This document shows, piece by piece, positions 29,995 through 45,464 of a stretch of 64,000 nucleotides of DNA. The translations under genes and the position numbers were made by a program. Within the stretch, counting starts at the first letter, position 1. The number at the start of each line of letters is the position of its first letter. The stretch is taken from sequence record NZ_CP069608.1. One strand, given 5' to 3'. Source of the DNA: a plasmid. The notes beneath the pieces are model-generated. The model saw nothing but the letters and a program-made list of their open reading frames with translations. It ran no database searches and was not told the DNA's origin.

Positions 29995-30423
29995 TTAAGC
30001 TTCTGGAAATAGACGTTGAAGTGAAGCTTTCATTTCTGGTTTTACGTTAATTTTAGCACGAGCTGCTTTGGCTTTCTCTTCTGCCTCTGCAATTGTATCT
30101 ACTTCGCCTAGTGCTAGTAGTGTTCCAATTGCAACCGTACCTGTACGATTACTTCCTCCTGCACAATGGAAGTAAATCTTTTTTCCCTCTTCATACGATT
30201 TTACGACTTCATTAATTGCATTTTGAATAGACTCATCTTGGTTTTCTGCATCATCCACAATTGGTGTATGAACGCGTACTTCTGGAGCATCGTGTTCTAA
30301 TGCTTCTGCACGTAAGTCATAAATGACATCTGCTTTATCATTTTCCATCATTTCTTTTACATCGGATGCTCCACCGATGAAAATACGATCGTCAATTAAT
30401 GCTTGATAATTCTTGTTGCTCAT
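29995..30423 (-). CDS. Cys-based protein phosphatase (dual-specificity/PTP-like, HCxxGxxRT loop)
   Basis: 142 aa; HCAGGSNRTG signature. Confidence 0.6.
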   Translation of the reverse strand: MSNKNYQALIDDRIFIGGASDVKEMMENDKADVIYDLRAEALEHDAPEVRVHTPIVDDAENQDESIQNAINEVVKSYEEGKKIYFHCAGGSNRTGTVAIGTLLALGEVDTIAEAEEKAKAARAKINVKPEMKASLQRLFPEA

Positions 30424-35135: not shown

Positions 35136-36248
35136 CTATCTTTCTTGAGGTTGAAAATATCTCTTTTTTAACCAAAACGCTGCATTTACAAGGGCAATGA
35201 GTGCCGGAACTTCTACAAGAGGTCCAATTACAGCTGCAAATGCGGCTCCTGAATTAATCCCAAATACCCCAACTGCTACAGCAATGGCCAACTCAAAGTT
35301 ATTGCCTGACGCAGTAAACGAAAGAGAAGTTGTAACAGAATAACTTGCTCCTGCCCTTTTTCCTAAATAAAAAGAAACAAAAAACATCAAGACAAAGTAA
35401 ATCAAAAGTGGAATAGCAATACGTACAACATCAAGAGGTAATTGAATAATCATATCTCCTTTTAACGAAAACATAACAATAATCGTAAATAGGAGTGCAA
35501 TAAGAGTCAAAGGACTAATTTTAGGTACGAGTACACGTTCATACCATTCTTTCCCTTTGATGCCGATAAAGATAAATCGAGTCAATATACCAGCTAAAAA
35601 AGGGATTCCCAAGTAAATGAGAACACTCTTTGCAATCTCACCCATCGTAATATCAATCACAAAGCTTTCAAGTCCCAACCATTTTGGAATAAGCGTAACG
35701 AACAAATACGCATAAACAGAGTAGAAAAAGACTTGAAAAATGGAATTAAGAGCGACTAAACCAGCAGCATATTCGCGATCCCCTTTCGCAAGGTCATTCC
35801 ATACAATAACCATGGCGATACAACGTGCTAGTCCAATTAAAATCAAACCAATCATGTACTCTGGTACATCTCTAAGAAAGACAATCGCAAGTAGAAACAT
35901 GAGAATAGGGCCAATAATCCAGTTTTGCAAAAGTGAAATTCCTAATACTTTTTTGTCTTTAAACACATGTCCCATATTTTCGTATCGTACTTTTGCTAAT
36001 GGTGGGTACATCATCAAAATTAATCCGATTGCTAAAGGAATGGATGTTGTACCTACCTGAAAGTGATTCAGTCCATCTACGAAGCTGGGAAAAACATAAC
36101 CTAAACCAATTCCTATAAACATAGCTACAAAAATCCATACAGTTAAATACCGATCTAAAAATGACAGTTGTTTACTCAATTGTTGATTCATTCCTTGCTC
36201 CAACTCCTTTTCAATTTTAGATCCACAGCCTCTACAACCTCCTTTCAT
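35136..36248 (-). CDS. acr3: ACR3 family arsenite efflux transporter (bile acid:Na+ symporter superfamily)
   Basis: ~350 aa core with 10 TM; true start possibly the internal Met ([15 protein letters not shown]). Confidence 0.8.
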
Positions 36249-36442
36249 TGTTGTACAATCATATAGTTATTCACTTATATATTGAGAAATGTATCTATTT
36301 ATGAATTTTTAAAAATAAACTATACAATTAGATAGCTGCTATATGATCCTTACTAAAAAATCCAACGTGAAAAAGCCACTTCCTTTCTGTAAAGAAGTAG
36401 CTTTCATTCGTTATATAAATAAGACTTTTTTGGACTTTACAC

Positions 36443-37684
36443 TCACATGGATCTGCTGAAAATTTGTTTTTTTTCTAGGTGAATCTTTGTCCATCCAATA
36501 GCTAATACACCAAAAATGACTGATCCTCCCCAATATAGATAAGCGAAGCCATTCTGAATTTCAATCAGCATGTAACTAATAAAGGGACCGAGTGCGGCTC
36601 CTATATCTTGAGCGATAGAATAGACCGTAAGAAAGGATATAATATTCGATGTTTTTGCTATATCAGATGCTAAAGCATCCGTAAGAGTTGTAATAGATGT
36701 AGCTCCTATCATGACGATCAGCATAATAACAACCCAAATGATTAGTGGTATATCACTAGCAATCATCCCAAACGCGAAACTACTAACAATAAGCGAAAGG
36801 ATATAAAGAGGAATTCTTCCAGATGGTCCATCTGACCAATGTCCAAAGAGACTACCGAAGAAGGGTTCCCAGGCCCAACGAACAGCCTGTAATAGCCCTG
36901 AAAAGAACGTAACACTAATAATCAATCCGAATAATGTGATTTTCTCCCCATATGAATGCTCAAGAATAGCACTAACAGTCGATGTTAAAACCCCTTGAAT
37001 TAACATCGTAATCAGAAATCCACTAATAATAATAATGATTTTATGTTTTAAGATCTTATGTATGGAAACATTGGTATTAGCTCTTTGAACAGCCTCAGTC
37101 TGTTGATTAGATTTAACTCGAAGAGAATAAAAAACTAAAGGTAGCCCTATAAAAGATAGACACCCAAAAAGGATAGAAACAAATTGCAATCCTACTATAG
37201 GTACTAGAATTCCCCCAAGTAACATACCAAATAGGCTTCCTGTGCGATATAGACCGTTATATAGCCCCATTGCTTTTCCACGAGTGGAGTCATTTGAATA
37301 ATAGACAACTGTCGATAATCCTCCGATTCGAAAGAAAGACCAAGCAATTCCCCATAGCCCTCGTAGAATAATCCAAGCAATAAACCCTTTAGCCATCCCA
37401 TATCCTAACGTTGTCACGCTTCCAAGTACAACTGCAATAATAAGGCCTGTCCGTAAAGATATTTTCTGGTATAACCATCCTATGAAAGGATTGAAAGGCA
37501 AACGAATAAATCGATTAACGGATAAAAGGATACCAACCTGCCAAAGGGAGTCAAGCCCTGCCACTTTCCAATAAACAGGTAATACAATATAGAGCATGGA
37601 GTCACCTAGAAGACTAAGTGCCGTTATAATAGCAACAAGAACAATCACGTTTGACGAAGAAGATTTAGATCTTGCAGTAAACAT
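36443..37684 (-). CDS. MFS transporter (12 TM)
   Basis: 413 aa polytopic. Confidence 0.75.
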   Translation of the reverse strand: MFTARSKSSSSNVIVLVAIITALSLLGDSMLYIVLPVYWKVAGLDSLWQVGILLSVNRFIRLPFNPFIGWLYQKISLRTGLIIAVVLGSVTTLGYGMAKGFIAWIILRGLWGIAWSFFRIGGLSTVVYYSNDSTRGKAMGLYNGLYRTGSLFGMLLGGILVPIVGLQFVSILFGCLSFIGLPLVFYSLRVKSNQQTEAVQRANTNVSIHKILKHKIIIIISGFLITMLIQGVLTSTVSAILEHSYGEKITLFGLIISVTFFSGLLQAVRWAWEPFFGSLFGHWSDGPSGRIPLYILSLIVSSFAFGMIASDIPLIIWVVIMLIVMIGATSITTLTDALASDIAKTSNIISFLTVYSIAQDIGAALGPFISYMLIEIQNGFAYLYWGGSVIFGVLAIGWTKIHLEKKQIFSRSM

Positions 37685-37712
37685 ACAATTACCACCTTCT
37701 TTAAGAAAAAGC

Positions 37713-37919
37713 TTATTTTTTTTGATGTTTTAGTTCATCGTAAGCTAGAAGAAAATTTTGATATGTTATATGTCCCATGCTATCACATTGTGATCCAAAT
37801 AATCGCTGAAAAGTTAGTTCCCTTGCCTGTTCAGCTGTATATTCATATGCGTTCATAAACAGTTTCATGTAGGATACAAAATACTCCTTACTCAACCTTC
37901 CTGAATGATTAATTGTCAT
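37713..37919 (-). CDS. Small hypothetical protein
   Basis: 68 aa ORF between the oxidoreductase and MFS genes. Confidence 0.3.
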   Translation of the reverse strand: MTINHSGRLSKEYFVSYMKLFMNAYEYTAEQARELTFQRLFGSQCDSMGHITYQNFLLAYDELKHQKK

Positions 37920-37984
37920 TCTTATGTCCTCCTTTATATAAAAAGGGAGTAAGCAAAATGATTACTCCCTTTCTAAAACACTAT

Positions 37985-39394
37985 TTAACAACCACAGTTC
38001 GAACTGTTACTATCCGTACTGCATGAGCTTTCTTGCTGTAAATTCACGCTACAAACCCCAGTCTCGGGTAGATCTAGCTCTACTCTCTTAGCTGCTTCGT
38101 AATCCCCAGCAAGATGAGCAGCAATTGATCGCACTTGTTCATAGCCAGTTGCCATTAAAAATGTTGGTGCACGCCCATAACTTTTAGCTCCTACAATATA
38201 AAAATCCTTTTCAGGTTGTCGAAGTTCTTCTTCTCCATGTGCGCGAACAGTACCACAACTATGCAGATTTGGATCAATTAGAGGAGATAATTTTTCTACA
38301 CTCTCTGTAATCGAATCAATGGCTGTACGTAATTCACTGATAATCGTAAAGTCTGGGCGATTGCCGGCATTTACAATCATTTCATCAATACCTGTCAGAA
38401 GTTCTTCTTCTCCTTTATGCTTTCCTATAATATCTATATGGTTATTGAATTCCTTCACATATTGAATCTTATAAGGTGTTACTACCTTTACTTTTCCTGT
38501 ATCTACAAGGTCGTGAATCCGACTTCCAAGAGCTCCCCTTTCTGCAAGAGCATCTTTTTCTTCCCCACCATATGCTTCTTCTACTTTTTGTTTTCTCATA
38601 ATCCAAATGATATCTGTTTGTGGATGAGTTTCCTGCAATTGAGCTAATTCTAATAAAGTATTAATAGCTGAATGACCACTTCCTACAACTGCTACACGTT
38701 TATCTGCATATCGAGATCTATCCGTTTCTAACACATTTGGAATGCCGTAAAAGATGTGGTCTTGAAGGGACCGTTCTCCTTTTAGCCAGACACCACCTGA
38801 ATTAGCAGGATTCGGGTTACCCCAGGTACCAGAAGCATCTAAGATCGCTCTAGCTTCGTATGTTTGAAGTTCACCATCTTTTACTGCATAAATTAAGAAA
38901 GGTTTATTTTCACGACCAGCCGTTTTCATCTTATCTGTTTCTTCTCGCGTAATGGAAAGAACCTTCGTGTTAACATGCACGTGTGGCTTTATTTCTGGAA
39001 TGTTTGCTAATGGCTCTAAATAGCCTTCTACAAGCTCTTTTCCTGTAGGTAATGTTTCTAATTCAGGAGATCTCCAGCCATTTTGTTCTAAAAGAGCGTG
39101 TGCTGCTTTATCAATGTTGTAACGCCAAGATGAGAATAAGCGAACATGCTCCCATGTTAAAATATTGGCCCCTACCTGTGAACCTGCTTCTAACAAAATG
39201 AATGATTGACCTTGTTTAGTTAGGTGTGCTGCTGCTGCAAGTCCAATCGGTCCTCCCCCAATAATGGCTACAGGTAAATGTTTATGCTTTGTTTCTTCCA
39301 CCTGCGTAGTAATTGGTTCAAATTTAATCTCTGGTGAGCAACAAGATGTTGTATTTAACGGAATTTTAATAGGTTTCATAAGAATTCTCCTCAT
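37985..39394 (-). CDS. FAD/NAD(P)-binding oxidoreductase (flavin monooxygenase-like, CzcO/ArsO-type) with Cys-rich termini
   Basis: 469 aa; two Rossmann GxGxxG sites (VAIIGGGPIGLAAA, VAVVGSGHSA); N-terminal SCC and C-terminal NCGC. Confidence 0.55.
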   Translation of the reverse strand: MRRILMKPIKIPLNTTSCCSPEIKFEPITTQVEETKHKHLPVAIIGGGPIGLAAAAHLTKQGQSFILLEAGSQVGANILTWEHVRLFSSWRYNIDKAAHALLEQNGWRSPELETLPTGKELVEGYLEPLANIPEIKPHVHVNTKVLSITREETDKMKTAGRENKPFLIYAVKDGELQTYEARAILDASGTWGNPNPANSGGVWLKGERSLQDHIFYGIPNVLETDRSRYADKRVAVVGSGHSAINTLLELAQLQETHPQTDIIWIMRKQKVEEAYGGEEKDALAERGALGSRIHDLVDTGKVKVVTPYKIQYVKEFNNHIDIIGKHKGEEELLTGIDEMIVNAGNRPDFTIISELRTAIDSITESVEKLSPLIDPNLHSCGTVRAHGEEELRQPEKDFYIVGAKSYGRAPTFLMATGYEQVRSIAAHLAGDYEAAKRVELDLPETGVCSVNLQQESSCSTDSNSSNCGC

Positions 39395-39427
39395 TTCTAC
39401 ATGATAAATTGTTCTTTCCTTAATCTT

Positions 39428-39447
39428 AAATCAAAAAAAATTGATTT
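39428..39447. promoter_or_regulatory. Operator-like palindrome aaATCAAaaaaaaTTGATtt (copy 1 of 4)
   Basis: Read directly, upstream of the oxidoreductase gene. Confidence 0.45.
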
Positions 39448-39560
39448 ATTAGGTGTGAAAACAGAATTGATTTTCTTTATTTCCTGCCTTGGTTCTTAGC
39501 ATATCAATCCCTTTCCCCTTCGCATTTACATTGCCTCTATTTTAGGAGCTAAAGTCATCG

Positions 39561-39578
39561 CATCAAAAAAAGTTGATG
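39561..39578. promoter_or_regulatory. Operator-like palindrome cATCAAaaaaagTTGATg (copy 2 of 4)
   Basis: Read directly. Confidence 0.45.
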
Positions 39579-39614
39579 TAATGACTAAAAAATTATATGA
39601 GCTTTAAAAGCTCG

Positions 39615-39935
39615 TTATGACATTGGTCGGAAGATGCAGCATAATTGTTCGGATAGCAGTGCATCTACTTCCTCTTTATTAATACTGTAATAATTCCATG
39701 TTCCTTTTTTTGTTTTATTAAGTAAGTTTGCATCTAATAAGATTTTTAGATGGTAAGAAAGTTTAGACTGAGAAAGACTAAAGAAATCCGTCATATCGCA
39801 AACACACATTTCCCCACTTTGGCATAACTCATAGAGAATGTGTAATCTTTTCTCATCTGCTAATGCTTTGAACTTTTTTTCATATATAGAAAATGAATTA
39901 CTCATTACTTCGTTATATAAAGGTAACTGTTTCAT
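39615..39935 (-). CDS. ArsR/SmtB family metalloregulator (CVC site)
   Basis: 106 aa; LHILYELCQSGEMCVCDM HTH with metal site. Confidence 0.85.
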   Translation of the reverse strand: MKQLPLYNEVMSNSFSIYEKKFKALADEKRLHILYELCQSGEMCVCDMTDFFSLSQSKLSYHLKILLDANLLNKTKKGTWNYYSINKEEVDALLSEQLCCIFRPMS

Positions 39936-39937
39936 AA

Positions 39938-39956
39938 AACTCTCCTTACATCAATT
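39938..39956. promoter_or_regulatory. Operator-like palindrome cATCAAttttttttTGATg (copy 3 of 4)
   Basis: Read directly, upstream of the ArsR-family gene. Confidence 0.45.
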
Positions 39957-40006
39957 TTTTTTGATGTTTTCAGTATACCCACATTTTCGTCTTTTTACAA
40001 CTGATA

Positions 40007-40023
40007 AATCAAAAAAAATTGAT
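40007..40023. promoter_or_regulatory. Operator-like palindrome aATCAAaaaaaaTTGATg (copy 4 of 4)
   Basis: Read directly. Confidence 0.45.
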
Positions 40024-40177
40024 GTATTTATTTCCTCTTTAATTTTCTTCAAATTTTGTTAAAGAAAAAGCTCCTAAAAACGTCTTTAAGCTTATTTTAG
40101 TTAATCTTACTACTCTCTAAACATATAATTCCCTATTGGATCATTAAAGATTTTCTAAGCTTTGAGGAGGGATAATT

Positions 40178-40513
40178 GTGAAAACAAGAGGGATTTTAAA
40201 TGCATTAATAGGTGCCTGGTTTATTATCGCACCTTGGGTGATTGACTCTTCAGATCAAGCAGGAGCTTTTTGGTCAAGTATAATTTTTGGAATCATTCAG
40301 CTTATCGCTTCATTGTGGGGATATGACAAACCTGGTTGGAATTCGTGGCTTAACTGGATTTCTGTGATTACCGGTGCCTGGTTTGTAATTTCTCCATTTA
40401 TCTACTCATTAACAAATGAAGAGTTTGGGCCAAGCGTAATTCTTGGTTTAATTACGATTATATTTAGCTTATGGAACTTAGGATCTAATTCAGAATCAAA
40501 ATCTGTAAGTTAA
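40178..40513 (+). CDS. SPW-repeat membrane protein
   Basis: 111 aa; two APW/SPF repeats (IIAPWVI, VISPFIY) in 4 TM. Confidence 0.65.
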   Translation: MKTRGILNALIGAWFIIAPWVIDSSDQAGAFWSSIIFGIIQLIASLWGYDKPGWNSWLNWISVITGAWFVISPFIYSLTNEEFGPSVILGLITIIFSLWNLGSNSESKSVS

Positions 40514-40632
40514 AACTAAAAAAATTACATCAGAACTGTCAAAAGAGATAGCCTATAAGGGAAACTTAATCATGGGAGAACTCTTGGTAAACAAGGGTTC
40601 CCTTTTGTCATATTTCCATAAAGAGGCATTAT

Positions 40633-42987
40633 GGTGCGACAAGAAGTCGCTTTCTTACAGTGTAGCTGACGCTACTCATCTAGACGCAAAGATGATCTCC
40701 ATCCGAAACGGCATGCTTGGTAACGAGTCTGTCGGTTGCATGAGGAAATGCGGAAACAGAGGACAAATGCATGGTTCAGAATACTGCTAGGAGAAGATAG
40801 GTATGGTAAACGAAAGTGAAGGTTTGTAAGCTTCGTAACTCTTAGCTCAAGATAATGCATGGACTAGCTTGGGTCTTGGTAAGAGGAAAAGTAGAATCAT
40901 AATGCTACTCTGGTGCGTCCCGCATCTTACCCGGAGTAAAGAACCTACCTACCCCTATCGTATCTGTGGAATGTGGAACTTGGTAAGCCCTATGTCATCT
41001 GTGTAAGCAGTAGGATGACTGCAAAGTCAAACAATGTGACAGAGGGTATGGGATATGAGAAAAAGCGAAAGCCGTTACCCTGAAAAGGGACAGGAAAGCA
41101 AGGAAATTGTATAACTGGACGGATACTGTCGTCTTCACAGATAATGACAGGCTCGAAAGAGCGCCTACTTCTCATGGGTCTTCAACACGAAAATAAATTT
41201 GTGGCTATCTTCTAACGAAAAGGAGCGTGCTGTTATGAATACCTCACTACGAGCGTCGACGCACGTCTCGCATAAAGGTTGGTACTCTATTGATTGGAAT
41301 ACTGTACAAAAATATGTAACGAAGTTACGACAAAGAATTTATCGTGCCGAACAACAGAATCAACGAAGAAGAGTAAGAAGACTTCAACGTTTACTCCTCC
41401 GGAGTAAAGCAAATTTACTACTCTCCATTCGCAGAGTGACGCAACAAAATAACGGTAAACGAACACCTGGTGTAGATGGCTATACTGCCTCACAACCAAA
41501 CGAACGTATCAAACTGTACCAACAACTACTAAAATGGAATGTTTTTCAGCATCGTCCAAAGCCAGCGAAACGAACGTTTATCGCTAAGAAAAATGGGAAG
41601 TTAAGACCCTTAGGTATTCCGACAATACGAGATCGAGTTTATCAAAATGTCGTCAAGAACGCATTAGAACCGCAATGGGAAGTTAAGTTCGAAGCCACTT
41701 CTTACGGTTTTCGTCCTAAAAGAAGCACACATGATGCCATAAGCAATCTCTTTAACAAGTTGAACACGAATAGTAAGAAGAAGTGGGTATTTGAAGGAGA
41801 CTTCTTAGGGTGTTTCGACCATCTTAACCATAAGTGGATAATAGAACAAACATCTGCGTTTTCAGGAAATAATCTCATTAGAAGATGGCTTGAAATGGGA
41901 TACATGGAGCAGGATATGCTTCATAAAACAGCAGAGGGAACTCCTCAGGGAAGTATCGTGTCTCCTCTTTTAGCCAACATCGCATTATGTGGAATGGAAG
42001 AAGAAATCGGTATTGTTTACAAAAAGACATACAAACCAGGATCAGGATATAAAATCGATCCTAAATGCAAGATAGGACGTGTTCTTTACGCAGATGACTT
42101 CGTCATCGTAACGGAAACGAAGGAACAAGCTGAAAGTATGTATCAGGAACTCAATCCTTACTTACAAAAGCGAGGAATTAAATTGAGTGAAGATAAAACC
42201 AAAGTCACACATATCGAGAGTGGTTTTGATTTCCTTGGTTTTTCACTCCGACAATACAAAACGGAACAAGGCAATAAGTTATTAATCAAACCCATTAAAG
42301 ACAGTATCAGAAAAGCAAAAAGCAAGATAAAAGATACGTTCGCAGTGATGCGAGGACGACCAGTAAAAGAAATTATACGTGTCCTAAACCCCATTATTCG
42401 AGGTTATGGACAGTATTGGAAACATGTCGTGTCGAAAAAGACGTTTGGTTATATAGACAACTACATTTTCTTGAAAATAATGAAACACCTTAGACAATTG
42501 CATCCAAGGAAGTCTTGGAAGTGGATTAATAAGCGCTATTTTAAGAAACCCCACCACGGTGGAAACAATAAATGGATTCTAACATGTCCACTTACTAATA
42601 TTCAATTGTTGAAGATGTCTTGGATTAAAATAGAACGACATGTCATGGTAGCCTACAAGAACAGCCCAGATGATCCGAATCTAAAAGATTATTGGGAAAA
42701 GCGAGACCGTAAGGTCTTTAATACCGAAAATACTTTAGATAGGATGAAACTCGCAAGAAAACAAGGATATCGTTGTGCACTGTGTAAATGCATTCTACAA
42801 AATGGAGAAAAAGTTACAGTGCGAAACCTCGAGGTTTCTACAGGTAAATTTGCTAAATTAGTACATGTACCGTGTATTAAATAAAGAAGTTGTTCGGATA
42901 AAAAGAAGGCTTGAGCCGTATGACGGGAAATCTGTCACGTACGGTTCTTAGGGGGGCGGGCGCTCGTGAGAGTGCCTGCCTACCCGA
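40633..42987 (+). mobile_element. Group II intron (5' GTGCG; domain V at 42912-42946; domain VI with bulged A; ends ...ac) carrying an intron-encoded protein in domain IV
   Basis: GUGCGAC 5' end ~565 nt upstream of the RT ORF; canonical DV hairpin GAGCCGUAUGACGGGAAAUCUGUCACGUACGGUUC. Confidence 0.8.
41199..42884 (+). CDS. Group II intron reverse transcriptase/maturase
   Basis: 561 aa; RT motifs including YADD; maturase X domain; C-terminal Cys-rich segment. Confidence 0.9.
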   Translation: MWLSSNEKERAVMNTSLRASTHVSHKGWYSIDWNTVQKYVTKLRQRIYRAEQQNQRRRVRRLQRLLLRSKANLLLSIRRVTQQNNGKRTPGVDGYTASQPNERIKLYQQLLKWNVFQHRPKPAKRTFIAKKNGKLRPLGIPTIRDRVYQNVVKNALEPQWEVKFEATSYGFRPKRSTHDAISNLFNKLNTNSKKKWVFEGDFLGCFDHLNHKWIIEQTSAFSGNNLIRRWLEMGYMEQDMLHKTAEGTPQGSIVSPLLANIALCGMEEEIGIVYKKTYKPGSGYKIDPKCKIGRVLYADDFVIVTETKEQAESMYQELNPYLQKRGIKLSEDKTKVTHIESGFDFLGFSLRQYKTEQGNKLLIKPIKDSIRKAKSKIKDTFAVMRGRPVKEIIRVLNPIIRGYGQYWKHVVSKKTFGYIDNYIFLKIMKHLRQLHPRKSWKWINKRYFKKPHHGGNNKWILTCPLTNIQLLKMSWIKIERHVMVAYKNSPDDPNLKDYWEKRDRKVFNTENTLDRMKLARKQGYRCALCKCILQNGEKVTVRNLEVSTGKFAKLVHVPCIK

Positions 42988-43144
42988 CTAAATAAAATGC
43001 AGATTACAAAAAAAACTCACCTTTTTTAGGTAAGCTTGAAAATGGAAAGGGAAATACCTGTGAAAATATACTTTATAGCATGTTTAACAATTAATTTATC
43101 ATCTAATAGTGAAAAAAGAATGAAAGGATAACTTACTTCATACA

Positions 43145-43235
43145 AAGAAGTAAATGTATAAACTAACTTATAAAAATTATAGTTTCACTATTTACTCTAA
43201 CTGACGACAAATATGGGCTTTTTCTACAAACTATT
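43145..43235 (-). repeat. Repeat family copy D (inverted orientation)
   Basis: Reverse complement reads ccatatttgtcgtcagttagagtaaatagtgaaactataatttttataagttagtttatacatttactt. Confidence 0.6.
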
Positions 43236-43790
43236 CAAATATTAAAGTGTTTATAAAGACAATGTTTTATCATTTACTTAAAGGTATGGATATCCCATTG
43301 ATTTTATTTTTGTGGTTTATATAATTACTCAATCTTTCTCTTTGACGGATATATTCTTCAAGGATAGCATTTTAGACTATAATTTCTATAAGTATAAATC
43401 TTAACTGTGATAGAGTAAAAGCATGAAAAAGACCATCTTAATCGATGGCCTCTTTCGTAAATTTATTGGTATACTTTTACGAACTCTAAAGTCGATTCTG
43501 TTTCAAAACGTTAAATGAAAAATCCGCAATTTTCAGGAAAAAGAACATCAAATATAAGTATTTAATATGCAGAGAAATGCTCTCTGAGGAAATTAACTTC
43601 TTTTTTAAATATGGACCCGATAATTCGATGCAAATTTCAGTGCAACTATAAAATGAGGCAATATTTGTTTTTTAATGCAGAAAAATCTTCTCTAGTGCAA
43701 TTGTCTTTTAGTTCTCATCTCATTTACATTACTTAGAGCAATATAAAAAAGGGACGCAGAATAATACTACGTCACTTTTAATTGCATCAT

Positions 43791-45464
43791 TTAGGTTTCC
43801 ATTATAATTGGTAAAATCATTGGTCTACGTCCTGTTTTATCAATTAAAAAGGGTTTTACATCATCTATCATTTTTCTTTTTATATCATTCCATTTAATTG
43901 CACCCGTGGATAACTGTGATAAAAGACTATCTTCTATAAGTTGCTCTAACTCCTGAAGAAGGTCCCCTGATTCCCTGATATATATAAATCCTCTTGTGAC
44001 AATTGCAGGTGGAGAAACTAACTTTTTCTCTTTTCGATTGATGGTCATACTAATAATGACAATACCTTCTTCAGATAACATTCTTCGGTCTCTTAAAACA
44101 ACTGTTCCAATATCCCCTATTCCACTTCCATCAACGTATACTGGGCTGGCCGGAATGTACCCTGCTTTTTTAGCACCTTGCGAGGATATTTCCAAGATAT
44201 CTCCATTATCTAAAACAAAACAATCCTTACTATGAACGCCACATTGGATGGCTAGTTTTGAATGTGCTTGAAGCATACGATACTCCCCATGAATGGGGAA
44301 AAAATACTTTGGGTTTAATAATCGTATCATTAGTTTTTGTTCTTCCTGCTTCCCATGTCCAGAAGTATGAATATCACTGATTTTATGATGAATAACATCT
44401 GCACCGGCACGATGTAACCGATCAATTACACGATTCACACTTATTGTATTGCCTGGAATAGGAGATGAAGAGAATACAATGGTGTCACCTGAAATAATTT
44501 GAATTTGACGGTGGCTACGATTAGCAATTCGGGATAAGGCAGCCATTGGTTCTCCTTGGCTTCCTGTACAAATAATTGTAATTTTGCCACCTGGGAACTT
44601 ATTGATATCATAAACGCTTATGAAAGTATCATCGGGTGCTACTATATATCCAAGCTTTCTTCCAATTTCAATTGTTTTTTCCATACTTCGTCCCACAATA
44701 GCCACTTTTCTTTTGTATTTTACAGAAGACTTGATTACTTGTTGAATACGATAAATATTCGAAGCGAATGAAGCAAAAATAATTCGGCCCTGGACAGCGT
44801 GGAAAATCTCTTCAATTGATTCTCCTACCTTTCGTTCTGACATAGAAAAGCCCGGAGATTCGCTATTGGTACTATCAGACAATAAGCACAAGACCCCTTC
44901 TCTCCCAATTTCAGCAATTTTATGAAGGTCTATTTCACCACCGTTAGGAGTTAAATCGAACTTAAAATCTCCTGTATGAACAATATTCCCTTCTGGCGTT
45001 GTGATGACAACGCCAAATGAGTCTGCAATGCTGTGTGTTGTACGGAAGAAACGCACTTTTATTTTTTCGAATTCGACAATAGTATCGCTATCTATAGATG
45101 TAAAGGAAATACCACGTATTCTATGCTCTTCTATCTTGCTTTTTATTAATTCTATAGACAAATCCCCTCCAAAAACAGGTGCCTTTACGTCCCGAAATAA
45201 GAAAGGAAGCCCTCCTATGTGATCTTCATGCCCATGAGTAATAAAAATCCCCTTTATTTTTTCTTTATTCTGCTTAAGGTACGTGTAATCTGATAACACA
45301 TAGTCAATGCCGAATAACTCATTGTCAGGAAATTTAATTCCGCAATCAATAAGGACTATTTCATCCTCATATTCCACTACATACGTGTTTTTACCAATTT
45401 CGCCGAGTCCCCCTAAAGCGAAAATTCTTACGCTGCTTTGTTTAAATTGACTCATCATTCTCAC
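43791..45464 (-). CDS. rnj: Ribonuclease J (metallo-beta-lactamase/beta-CASP family)
   Basis: 557 aa; HGHEDHIGG motif. Confidence 0.9.
   Translation of the reverse strand: MRMMSQFKQSSVRIFALGGLGEIGKNTYVVEYEDEIVLIDCGIKFPDNELFGIDYVLSDYTYLKQNKEKIKGIFITHGHEDHIGGLPFLFRDVKAPVFGGDLSIELIKSKIEEHRIRGISFTSIDSDTIVEFEKIKVRFFRTTHSIADSFGVVITTPEGNIVHTGDFKFDLTPNGGEIDLHKIAEIGREGVLCLLSDSTNSESPGFSMSERKVGESIEEIFHAVQGRIIFASFASNIYRIQQVIKSSVKYKRKVAIVGRSMEKTIEIGRKLGYIVAPDDTFISVYDINKFPGGKITIICTGSQGEPMAALSRIANRSHRQIQIISGDTIVFSSSPIPGNTISVNRVIDRLHRAGADVIHHKISDIHTSGHGKQEEQKLMIRLLNPKYFFPIHGEYRMLQAHSKLAIQCGVHSKDCFVLDNGDILEISSQGAKKAGYIPASPVYVDGSGIGDIGTVVLRDRRMLSEEGIVIISMTINRKEKKLVSPPAIVTRGFIYIRESGDLLQELEQLIEDSLLSQLSTGAIKWNDIKRKMIDDVKPFLIDKTGRRPMILPIIMET

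Follow-up and report, generated by a model that had tools for sequence, protein, structure and literature searches.

What does a small repressor gene do in company with a flavoprotein gene, a short open reading frame (ORF) and a transporter gene beside an arsenic resistance operon, and how are these genes controlled? The question is raised by positions 36443-40023 of a 64,000-nucleotide (nt) stretch of the plasmid record NZ_CP069608.1; the whole stretch analysed is called the window here. All parts of this unit lie on the minus strand: the gene for a repressor of the ArsR/SmtB family, which we call ArsRx, is followed by genes for a flavoprotein (Oxr), a 68-residue protein (orf68) and a major facilitator superfamily (MFS) pump, and then by a terminator. 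Downstream on the same strand come acr3, the operon arsR-arsB-arsC-arsD-arsA and a phosphatase-like gene. The original prediction, made from the DNA letters alone, had listed an ArsR/SmtB regulator with a CVC site, a flavoprotein with Cys-rich termini, a small ORF and an MFS gene next to a complete ars operon and an Acr3 gene; domain searches bear out this gene content, and the neighbours are as described. We consider it fairly probable that the unit is an accessory operon of arsenic resistance, complete in itself and horizontally mobile, in which ArsRx represses the genes for Oxr, orf68 and the MFS pump and these serve to oxidise and export a metalloid. Its main parts, in the direction of transcription, are as follows.

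40008-40023, minus strand: predicted operator O1, ATCAATTTTTTTTGAT on the coding strand, an exact match, 7 nt upstream of the arsRx -35 element
39972-40000, minus strand: putative arsRx promoter, with -35 TTGTAA at 40000-39995, a 17-nt spacer and -10 TATACT at 39977-39972
39950-39965, minus strand: predicted operator O2, an exact match, 6 nt downstream of the -10 element
39615-39935, minus strand: arsRx, encoding an ArsR/SmtB repressor of 106 residues, with CVCD located in helix alpha-3 and an LCC pair towards the C terminus
39562-39577, minus strand: predicted operator O3, ATCAACTTTTTTTGAT, an exact match, overlapping a -35-like TTGATG at 39566-39561
39430-39445, minus strand: predicted operator O4, ATCAATTTTTTTTGAT, an exact match, 50 nt upstream of the Oxr start
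37985-39379, minus strand: Oxr, a 464-residue FAD/NAD(P)H flavoprotein with two dinucleotide-binding domains
37713-37919, minus strand: orf68, a conserved 68-residue protein with its own Shine-Dalgarno sequence AAAGGAGG
36443-37684, minus strand: MFS transporter of 413 residues with an MFS_1 domain, a presumed efflux pump

Is the unit tied to arsenic by more than its neighbours on this plasmid? We took 80 loci with an Oxr homologue, one genome per species, and annotated them by BLAST with the window proteins. Genes for arsenic efflux or reduction (arsB/acr3, arsC, arsD, arsA) lie no more than 5 kb from the Oxr gene in 63 of the 80, and in Lysinibacillus Oxr is itself the last gene of arsR-acr3-arsC-arsD-arsA, sometimes with orf68 before it. 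By tblastn of plasmids the Oxr family was also found in Actinobacteria (44-46% identity) and Proteobacteria (46-49%). A unit of the form arsR-Oxr-MFS adjoins arsJ and its GAPDH gene on a Paracoccaceae plasmid, lies within an ars island of Hydrogenophaga and adjoins an ars operon in Afipia. Rhizobium rhizogenes has the order arsR-arsC-acr3-arsC-arsH-arsR-Oxr-arsK, with a true ArsK; Pseudomonas nitroreducens has MarR-ArsN1-Oxr-arsD-arsA; and in Rhodococcus and Streptomyces, Oxr-MFS has ArsO-type genes close by. Natural fusions link Oxr with ArsN2 (in three clusters, the ArsN2 part scoring above its cutoff), with ArsR and with an ArsK-like MFS protein, the last of which may be a gene-calling read-through; the fusion proteins are P0363, P0364, P0509, P0373 and P0391. 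By this ars context and these fusions, the flavoprotein with its MFS partner is supported as an arsenic-linked accessory module, in agreement with the metalloid or organoarsenical unit that had been proposed.

The mobility and self-sufficiency of the module are illustrated by SAP008A (locus L091), a mobilisable plasmid of 9,968 bp from Staphylococcus sp. 693-2, isolated from poultry litter. It carries homologues of ArsRx, orf68 and Oxr together with three ATCAA-N6-TTGAT sites, and the whole plasmid has no other ars or resistance gene, which suggests that these three genes can be selected for by themselves. A gene pair for a SLATT-domain protein and a reverse transcriptase is also present on SAP008A.

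What kind of enzyme is Oxr? It is matched by the Pfam model Pyr_redox_3 (69 bits), as well as by Pyr_redox_2 and NAD_binding_8, and it contains the dinucleotide-binding motifs GGGPIG and GSGHSA, for FAD and NAD(P)H. The listed ATG at 39394 falls within a GAGGAG Shine-Dalgarno sequence, which stands 7 nt upstream of the ATG at 39379; the latter is most likely the true start and gives 464 residues, the length of the closest homologue, so that the 469 residues of the original prediction are most likely too many. Homologues are numerous (an exhaustive HMMER scan found 706 clusters at 50% identity matching Oxr at E<=1e-30) and have generic names only, being annotated "FAD-dependent oxidoreductase". 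The best curated family match is ArsO (NF040505), at 52.5 bits against an equivalog cutoff of 425 and limited to model positions 3-186 of 346, and membership of the ArsO family was rejected on this score. The adjacent ArsO-like paralogues of ~355 residues reach 273 bits on the same model. When Oxr was aligned with these flavin monooxygenase (FMO) paralogues by hhalign, the probability was 99.5%, with 24% identity over 324 columns, and the motif W..LRLFSP is common to both. Judged by these profiles, Oxr is truly, if distantly, homologous to the ArsO-like FMOs; the comparison with ArsO and CzcO made at the outset thus holds as distant homology and fails as family membership.

The cysteines of Oxr deserve separate mention. 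Two are invariant in our alignments, Cys375 (in HSCGT) and Cys443 (in ETGVCS), in the 464-residue numbering. A vicinal CC pair near the N terminus occurs in 72 of 81 sequences of a Bacillales-dominated set; among the members examined, it is absent from those of Bacteroidota and Proteobacteria and from some of those of Paenibacillus. Most members have a CC pair at the C terminus, and the window Oxr has a Cys-rich C-terminal tail. Some Paenibacillus loci, in which Oxr has no N-terminal CC, have a separate 62-residue ORF ending in SVCCACACS after the operators. In Paenibacillus sedimenti (L066, 4698-4886) this ORF has its own Shine-Dalgarno sequence and lies between the operators and Oxr; it may be a split-off cysteine module.

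The regulators that accompany Oxr point to a known enzyme. In at least 49 of the 80 loci, four Paenibacillus species included, a gene for a MarR protein of ~150 residues with an NKNCC motif lies directly upstream of Oxr, and the upstream regulator is either this MarR or ArsRx, not both. MarR_ars, described in a preprint by the Rensing and Rosen groups, is a repressor of arsV that is released by As(III) or Sb(III) and has a Cys36-Cys37 pair; its gene precedes arsV in a Paenibacillus strain and precedes arsN elsewhere (10.1101/2021.08.12.456183). In reviews, ArsV is an oxidase of methylarsenite (MAs(III)); by these and the preprint, ArsW is a permease for the efflux of methylarsenate and ArsK an exporter of trivalent species. 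As cited in the literature that was read, ArsV occurs with ArsW or ArsK in Ensifer adhaerens ST2, Paracoccus sp. SY and Achromobacter sp. As-55 (Zhang et al. 2022, Chen et al. 2021, Environ Microbiol), and the family was described in 2021-22 in Proteobacteria. Oxr has two of the features that go with ArsV: it contains the dinucleotide motifs and takes its place in ars islands after a MarR_ars-like or ArsR gene, often before an efflux permease gene. Given this gene order, these regulators and this distribution, Oxr most likely belongs to the ArsV family. To call the unit "possibly uncharacterised", as was done originally, was therefore probably too strong. With NAD(P)H, reduced FAD and O2, Oxr would oxidise methylarsenite, roxarsone(III) or antimonite to a far less toxic pentavalent form; its terminal Cys pairs and the two invariant core cysteines would capture and position the thiophilic substrate, orf68 would aid it as a Bacillales-specific helper, and the MFS pump would export the product or the trivalent substrate.

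The same cysteines could be read in another way. It is conceivable, if unlikely, that Oxr is distinct from ArsV and acts as a cysteine-relay enzyme like mercuric reductase, in which flexible Cys pairs at both termini would take up As(III), MAs(III) or Sb(III) and hand it on to Cys375/Cys443 by the flavin, where its redox state would be changed. Then orf68 would be an obligatory partner, an unrecognised clade of MFS proteins would carry out the export, and ArsRx would have a new sensing geometry made up of the alpha-3 CVC and the C-terminal CC of the other subunit.

The main rival to an oxidase of the ArsV type is a reductase role of the thioredoxin reductase (TrxR) or bacillithiol-disulfide reductase (Bdr) type: Oxr would be a thiol/disulfide or metalloid reductase ("ArsT") instead of an oxygenase, and would keep low-molecular-weight thiols or ArsC reduced, or reduce a metalloid species, under arsenic stress. 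An AlphaFold2 (AF2) model built on a 92-sequence alignment (pLDDT 72; 39 for the single-sequence version) has a TrxR/FMO-type fold. A Foldseek search with Oxr against the PDB matched only folds of a generic kind (TrxR, FNR, N-hydroxylase) at TM scores of 0.3-0.47, which do not discriminate between oxidase and reductase; the top matches were Bdr/YpdA, TrxR-like ferredoxin reductases and TrxR2. Moreover, JGI labels many Oxr members as thioredoxin reductase, the cluster name arsR3-T-O1-O2-N in Bacillus sp. CDB3 probably refers to the Oxr gene as arsT, and two invariant cysteines with vicinal Cys pairs at the termini would suit such an enzyme. Assignment to thioredoxin reductases was nevertheless rejected, as Oxr has no core CxxC redox motif, its two invariant cysteines are 68 residues apart, and it scores 29.9 bits on the thioredoxin-disulfide reductase model TIGR01292 (cutoff 343) and 43 on YpdA (cutoff 340). 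The full-length profile match, W..LRLFSP motif included, is to the ArsO-like FMO group, and the steady company of an efflux pump speaks more for a substrate that is converted and then exported than for redox housekeeping. We regard the reductase as distinctly unlikely.

What would ArsRx sense? Its scores exceed the thresholds for the ArsR/SmtB winged helix (Pfam PF01022 HTH_5, 55.1 bits, cutoff 22; NCBIfam NF033788 HTH_metalloreg, 96 bits, cutoff 55), and it has the alpha-3 CVC cysteines. The 12 ArsRx orthologues all contain CVC(D/E) and LCC(I/L/V)F, and the canonical ArsR encoded in the adjacent ars operon shows the same pattern of CVC plus C-terminal CC. The nearest solved structures are those of CadC from Listeria and from S. 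aureus pI258 (E ~1e-12), which are Cd/Pb/Zn sensors, and here lies one argument that the unit handles another thiophilic stressor (Cd/Pb/Zn, tellurite/selenite or reactive sulfur), its proximity to ars genes reflecting the clustering of resistance genes on mobile elements. Two sets of loci speak for this as well: in Mammaliicoccus the module adjoins mer as well as ars genes, and in Bacteroidota (L078, L067) Oxr, with or without an MFS gene, stands beside extracytoplasmic function (ECF) sigma factor, peroxiredoxin-like and MGS-like genes with no obvious ars context. In pI258 CadC, however, the N-terminal Cys7 and Cys11 complete the alpha-3N site, and an N-terminal cysteine is absent from ArsRx and from 11 of its 12 orthologues, so that membership of the CadC subfamily was rejected; ArsRx is also devoid of the alpha-5 His/Asp site. 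With CVC and a C-terminal CC, without the CadC N-terminal cysteine and without the alpha-5 site, ArsRx would therefore be a sensor of the thiolate, trivalent-metalloid type. This sensor type, the frequency of ars efflux and reductase genes near Oxr, its direct membership of the Lysinibacillus operon, the fusions to ArsN2 and the nature of the alternative regulators, either similar to MarR_ars, which responds to As/Sb, or ArsRs that carry a C-terminal CC, make another stressor very unlikely.

How is the unit controlled? A pattern search of the window found ATCAA-N6-TTGAT exactly four times, whereas after shuffling with dinucleotides preserved the mean was 0.32 matches and none of 100 shuffles reached four; with one mismatch allowed, a single extra and unrelated site appeared. 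Each site is 16 bp long with a spacer of six A/T-rich bases, and the consensus across loci is tAATCAA-W6-TTGATTa, in which the five-base half-sites are invariant while spacers and flanks differ. Of the original description, the number of palindromes stands, but the spacer is six bases and not eight, and the third site starts at 39950 and not at 39938.

These sites follow the regulator. Of the 80 loci, 12 encode an ArsRx orthologue (57-99% identity), and all 12 have ATCAA-N6-TTGAT sites. The pairing is also seen on the Staphylococcus plasmid SAP008A and in a B. cereus island (L081), which has five sites, one of them ~220 nt further upstream; in all, the co-occurrence spans Priestia, Bacillus, Heyndrickxia, Paenibacillus and Staphylococcus. 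Two more loci, in Priestia abyssalis (L003) and Bacillus fengqiuensis (L062), have sites before Oxr but lack an arsRx gene within the 11 kb examined, the regulator being either lost or encoded elsewhere; the cassette O1-promoter-O2 lies there directly ahead of Oxr (4769-4842 in L003, 4772-4957 in L062). The other 66 loci contain only isolated single matches at unrelated positions, none of them clustered before Oxr. In L065, where ~4 kb separate the regulator gene from that of Oxr, a pair of sites accompanies each of them, which argues for a functional link of the two genes through the sites.

The sites are also fixed relative to the promoter. From Priestia to Paenibacillus the order is O1, 7 nt, TTGnnn, 17 nt, TATAnT, 6-8 nt, O2, Shine-Dalgarno sequence and ATG, with O1 exactly 7 nt before the TTG in 14 of 14 aligned promoters (Priestia, Bacillus, Heyndrickxia, Paenibacillus); the O1-O2 spacing is 58 nt in the window and 58-61 nt in orthologous loci. 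In the window, the arsRx promoter agrees with the consensus at 9 of 12 positions in a promoter scan, and O2 spans the likely transcription start, with the Shine-Dalgarno sequence AAGGAG and the arsRx ATG coming next. This conserved geometry places O1 and O2 on either side of the predicted RNA polymerase binding site, the classic layout for an autorepressor. In orthologous loci one or two further sites stand ahead of Oxr or of orf68-Oxr; the proximal, O4-type site is present in the same orientation in every locus of the second alignment panel, and the distal, O3-type site in most but not all orthologous loci. Duplicated predicted operators at both promoter regions, as had been proposed, are found, two bracketing the arsRx promoter and two before Oxr, and because of their co-occurrence with the orthologues and their fixed promoter positions the sites are supported as predicted operators of the adjacent ArsRx. 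The palindromes at the canonical arsR promoter of the window differ from ATCAA-N6-TTGAT, so cross-talk with ArsRx is not expected. Among loci without ArsRx, no word of 11 or more bases was common to the regions upstream of Oxr and of the canonical arsR, and the loci tested in this way for a shared operator proved to use MarR instead.

In the explanation that we prefer, an ArsRx dimer would bind the 16-bp operators: at O1, upstream of the -35 element, and at O2, over the transcription start, it would repress its own promoter, and at the two further sites before Oxr it would repress a second transcription unit. Binding of As(III), Sb(III) or a trivalent organoarsenical to the CVC and C-terminal CC thiols would release the repressor, and Oxr, orf68 and the MFS transporter would be made. 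That the palindromes are instead generic A/T-rich repeats, such as terminator-like or recombination sites that travel with the cassette, is extremely unlikely, for although they are A/T-rich in an A/T-rich genome and two loci have them without an arsRx gene nearby, four sites were not reached in any shuffle, half-sites stay invariant while their surroundings vary, the register to -35 and -10 is fixed, clusters occur with ArsRx orthologues or before Oxr and only isolated singles elsewhere, and the recognition helix SQSKLSYHLK is kept among the orthologues.

Several observations nevertheless weigh against the explanation as a whole. No NCBIfam model captures Oxr, and no database source, a homologue search seeded from Rhizobium included, names an Oxr homologue ArsV; the ~355-residue ArsO-like paralogue of the same islands is an alternative ArsV candidate. 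In the FxGxxxHxxxY/F region of class B FMOs, the ArsO-like paralogues read F.G...HS..Y, whereas Oxr reads GE..L..HIFYGIP with non-canonical spacing. The structural matches of Oxr are to disulfide and ferredoxin reductases as much as to monooxygenases, at low TM scores, and in the AF2 model the most conserved stretch, residues 347-377, and both termini are of low confidence. The Oxr-MFS pair of Bacteroidota has no obvious ars context, and the role of the family may be broader there. The O3-O4 spacing ranges widely, from 22 to 137 nt, and the Oxr promoter is poorly defined: the -35-like TTGATG at O3 is followed by a 16-nt spacer and TAAAAT (39544-39539), O4 is abutted by TTAAGA, a 17-nt spacer and TATCAT (39429-39401), and a promoter can be assigned here only tentatively. 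Finally, the ars3 cluster of Bacillus sp. CDB3 is probably the same module. As for the interval between O3 and O4 itself (39446-39561 in the window), it measures 132-137 nt in Priestia, 69 nt in B. cereus and 22 nt in Paenibacillus, and the extra Priestia DNA has no Rfam match.

Which partners does Oxr have? A homologue of orf68 adjoins it in 47 of the 80 loci, whether an MFS gene is present or not, and others are found on Staphylococcus and Mammaliicoccus plasmids; orf68 is a Bacillales partner of Oxr and has no relative in Pfam, NCBIfam or the PDB, profile search included. The MFS protein matches Pfam MFS_1 at 105.5 bits (cutoff 33.4). It had been compared with ArsK and ArsJ, a comparison that the searches contradict: it has no match at E<0.01 to the ArsK model NF033733 (cutoff 400) and no BLAST match below 1e-3 to the MFS proteins of L084-L090 (Proteobacteria, Actinobacteria), Oxr partners that score 220-636 bits on that model. 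In this range the proteobacterial partners are ArsK-related (220-228 bits) and the true ArsK reaches 636. An assignment of the window pump as ArsK, ArsJ or ArsW-like was rejected accordingly. Its identity to MFS proteins encoded next to Oxr is 42% in L066, 35% in L073 and 25% in L078, and by sequence it groups with those that follow Oxr in Paenibacillus and Bacteroidota.

Two further features complete the unit.

39599-39613, minus strand: short hairpin GAGCTTTTAAAGCTC and T-rich run past the arsRx stop codon, found by a scan for terminator-like elements
36366-36405, minus strand: intrinsic terminator past the MFS stop codon, at the end of the operon, formed by a 15-bp stem and a U-run

The first, with a stem of 6 bp only, is a weak candidate for a terminator or attenuator; the second folds at -25.9 kcal/mol (z = -3.75 against shuffles). 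Strong ribosome-binding sites precede orf68 and the MFS gene. An Rfam scan of 36000-44000 found no RNA element within the intergenic gaps of the unit, and megablast of the unit against PLSDB gave no match. On the side of arsRx, a divergent gene for a 111-residue SPW-repeat membrane protein (40178-40513, plus strand) also adjoins the module in a Priestia megaterium plasmid locus (L001). Immediately to the right of the unit lies a group II intron (41199-42988, plus strand), with a reverse transcriptase/maturase ORF at 41199-42884 (TIGR04416, 350 bits) and domain V/VI at 42911-42988 (Rfam Intron_gpII, 65.7 bits). On the other side, the 142-residue phosphatase-like ORF after arsA (29995-30423, minus strand) recalls orf8, the dual-specificity phosphatase of the ars1 operon of Bacillus sp. 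CDB3.

Why does the module matter? No arsenic species are more toxic than trivalent methylarsenite and roxarsone derivatives, and these serve microbes as antibiotics. If the module is a Gram-positive ArsV system, then organoarsenical resistance is widespread and mobile in Bacillus, Priestia, Paenibacillus and poultry-litter Staphylococcus. ArsRx and its 16-bp site, with their conserved promoter geometry, form a defined repressor/operator pair that could serve in an arsenical biosensor; the 68-residue partner protein and the MFS clade are newly identified parts; and the conserved cysteines of Oxr make the mechanism of the enzyme directly testable. Current understanding is not overturned by this; rather, the uninformative annotation of a widespread mobile resistance module is corrected.

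How does the unit compare with known systems? ArsRx shares the winged-helix ArsR/SmtB fold and the alpha-3 CVC with CadC (S. aureus pI258; Listeria Lmo1102) and with ArsR (R773, pI258). CadC and classical ArsR proteins regulate their own genes through A/T-rich inverted repeats of the TCAA...TTGA type that overlap the promoter, and the sites assigned to ArsRx resemble these. The likeness to CadC that was noticed at first is thus borne out by the nearest structures and has its limits: the N-terminal Cys pair is replaced by a conserved C-terminal CC pair, the half-sites are 6 bp apart, 2 bp closer than those of CadC, there are four operators, two per promoter region, and the genomic context is arsenic and not cadA. 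Similarly, ArsO (Streptomyces sp. FR-008), CzcO and SMFMO-type enzymes have a FAD/NAD(P)H core homologous to that of Oxr, and ArsO-type genes and Oxr both occur in ars islands, often adjoining; however, Oxr is ~100 residues longer, has the invariant LIDPNxHSCGTVRPHGExEL and Cys-rich tails, and in the same Streptomyces locus PGAP names a separate true ArsO.

Among arsenic clusters, a search of the literature by operon names found nothing relevant. The ars3 cluster arsR3-T-O1-O2-N of Bacillus sp. CDB3 is known from annotation only, with no functional data (PMC5481582). Its gene content matches that of L081 (CP128162.1, 1741-17383), very probably a cluster of one and the same type, on a B. cereus mobile island that contains genes for ArsRx (106 residues), Oxr, a 66-residue ORF, an ArsO-like protein and ArsN1. 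It differs in that its report describes no operator, function or small ORF, and the Priestia unit has an MFS gene in place of the ArsO and ArsN genes. The L081 module directly follows Tn7-like genes (TnsA-like, AAA_22), and an insertion sequence lies before its ArsO-like and ArsN1 genes.

The closest counterparts are the ArsV systems, of which the module is probably a Gram-positive version, as an oxidase and pump. Both have a flavoprotein gene followed by an MFS efflux gene, a repressor that responds, or in the case of ArsRx is predicted to respond, to As/Sb, and a place in an ars island; Oxr homologues with 46-49% identity occur in the arsR-Oxr-MFS units of Paracoccaceae, Rhizobiaceae and Comamonadaceae, and a MarR resembling MarR_ars lies directly upstream of Oxr in most Bacillales loci. 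With MarR_ars of Achromobacter deleyi As-55, ArsRx would share the role, predicted in its case, of a metalloid-released repressor before Oxr/arsV with a vicinal Cys pair as sensor, although it belongs to another protein family. The N-terminal CC pair of the window Oxr is absent from proteobacterial members. What is new relative to the known ArsV systems is the repressor, which instead of MarR_ars is a CadC-like ArsR (it shares ~25% identity with the ArsRs found in proteobacterial arsR-Oxr-MFS units) and has a predicted 16-bp operator of its own, an MFS pump from an unrelated clade, and an extra conserved 68-residue protein.

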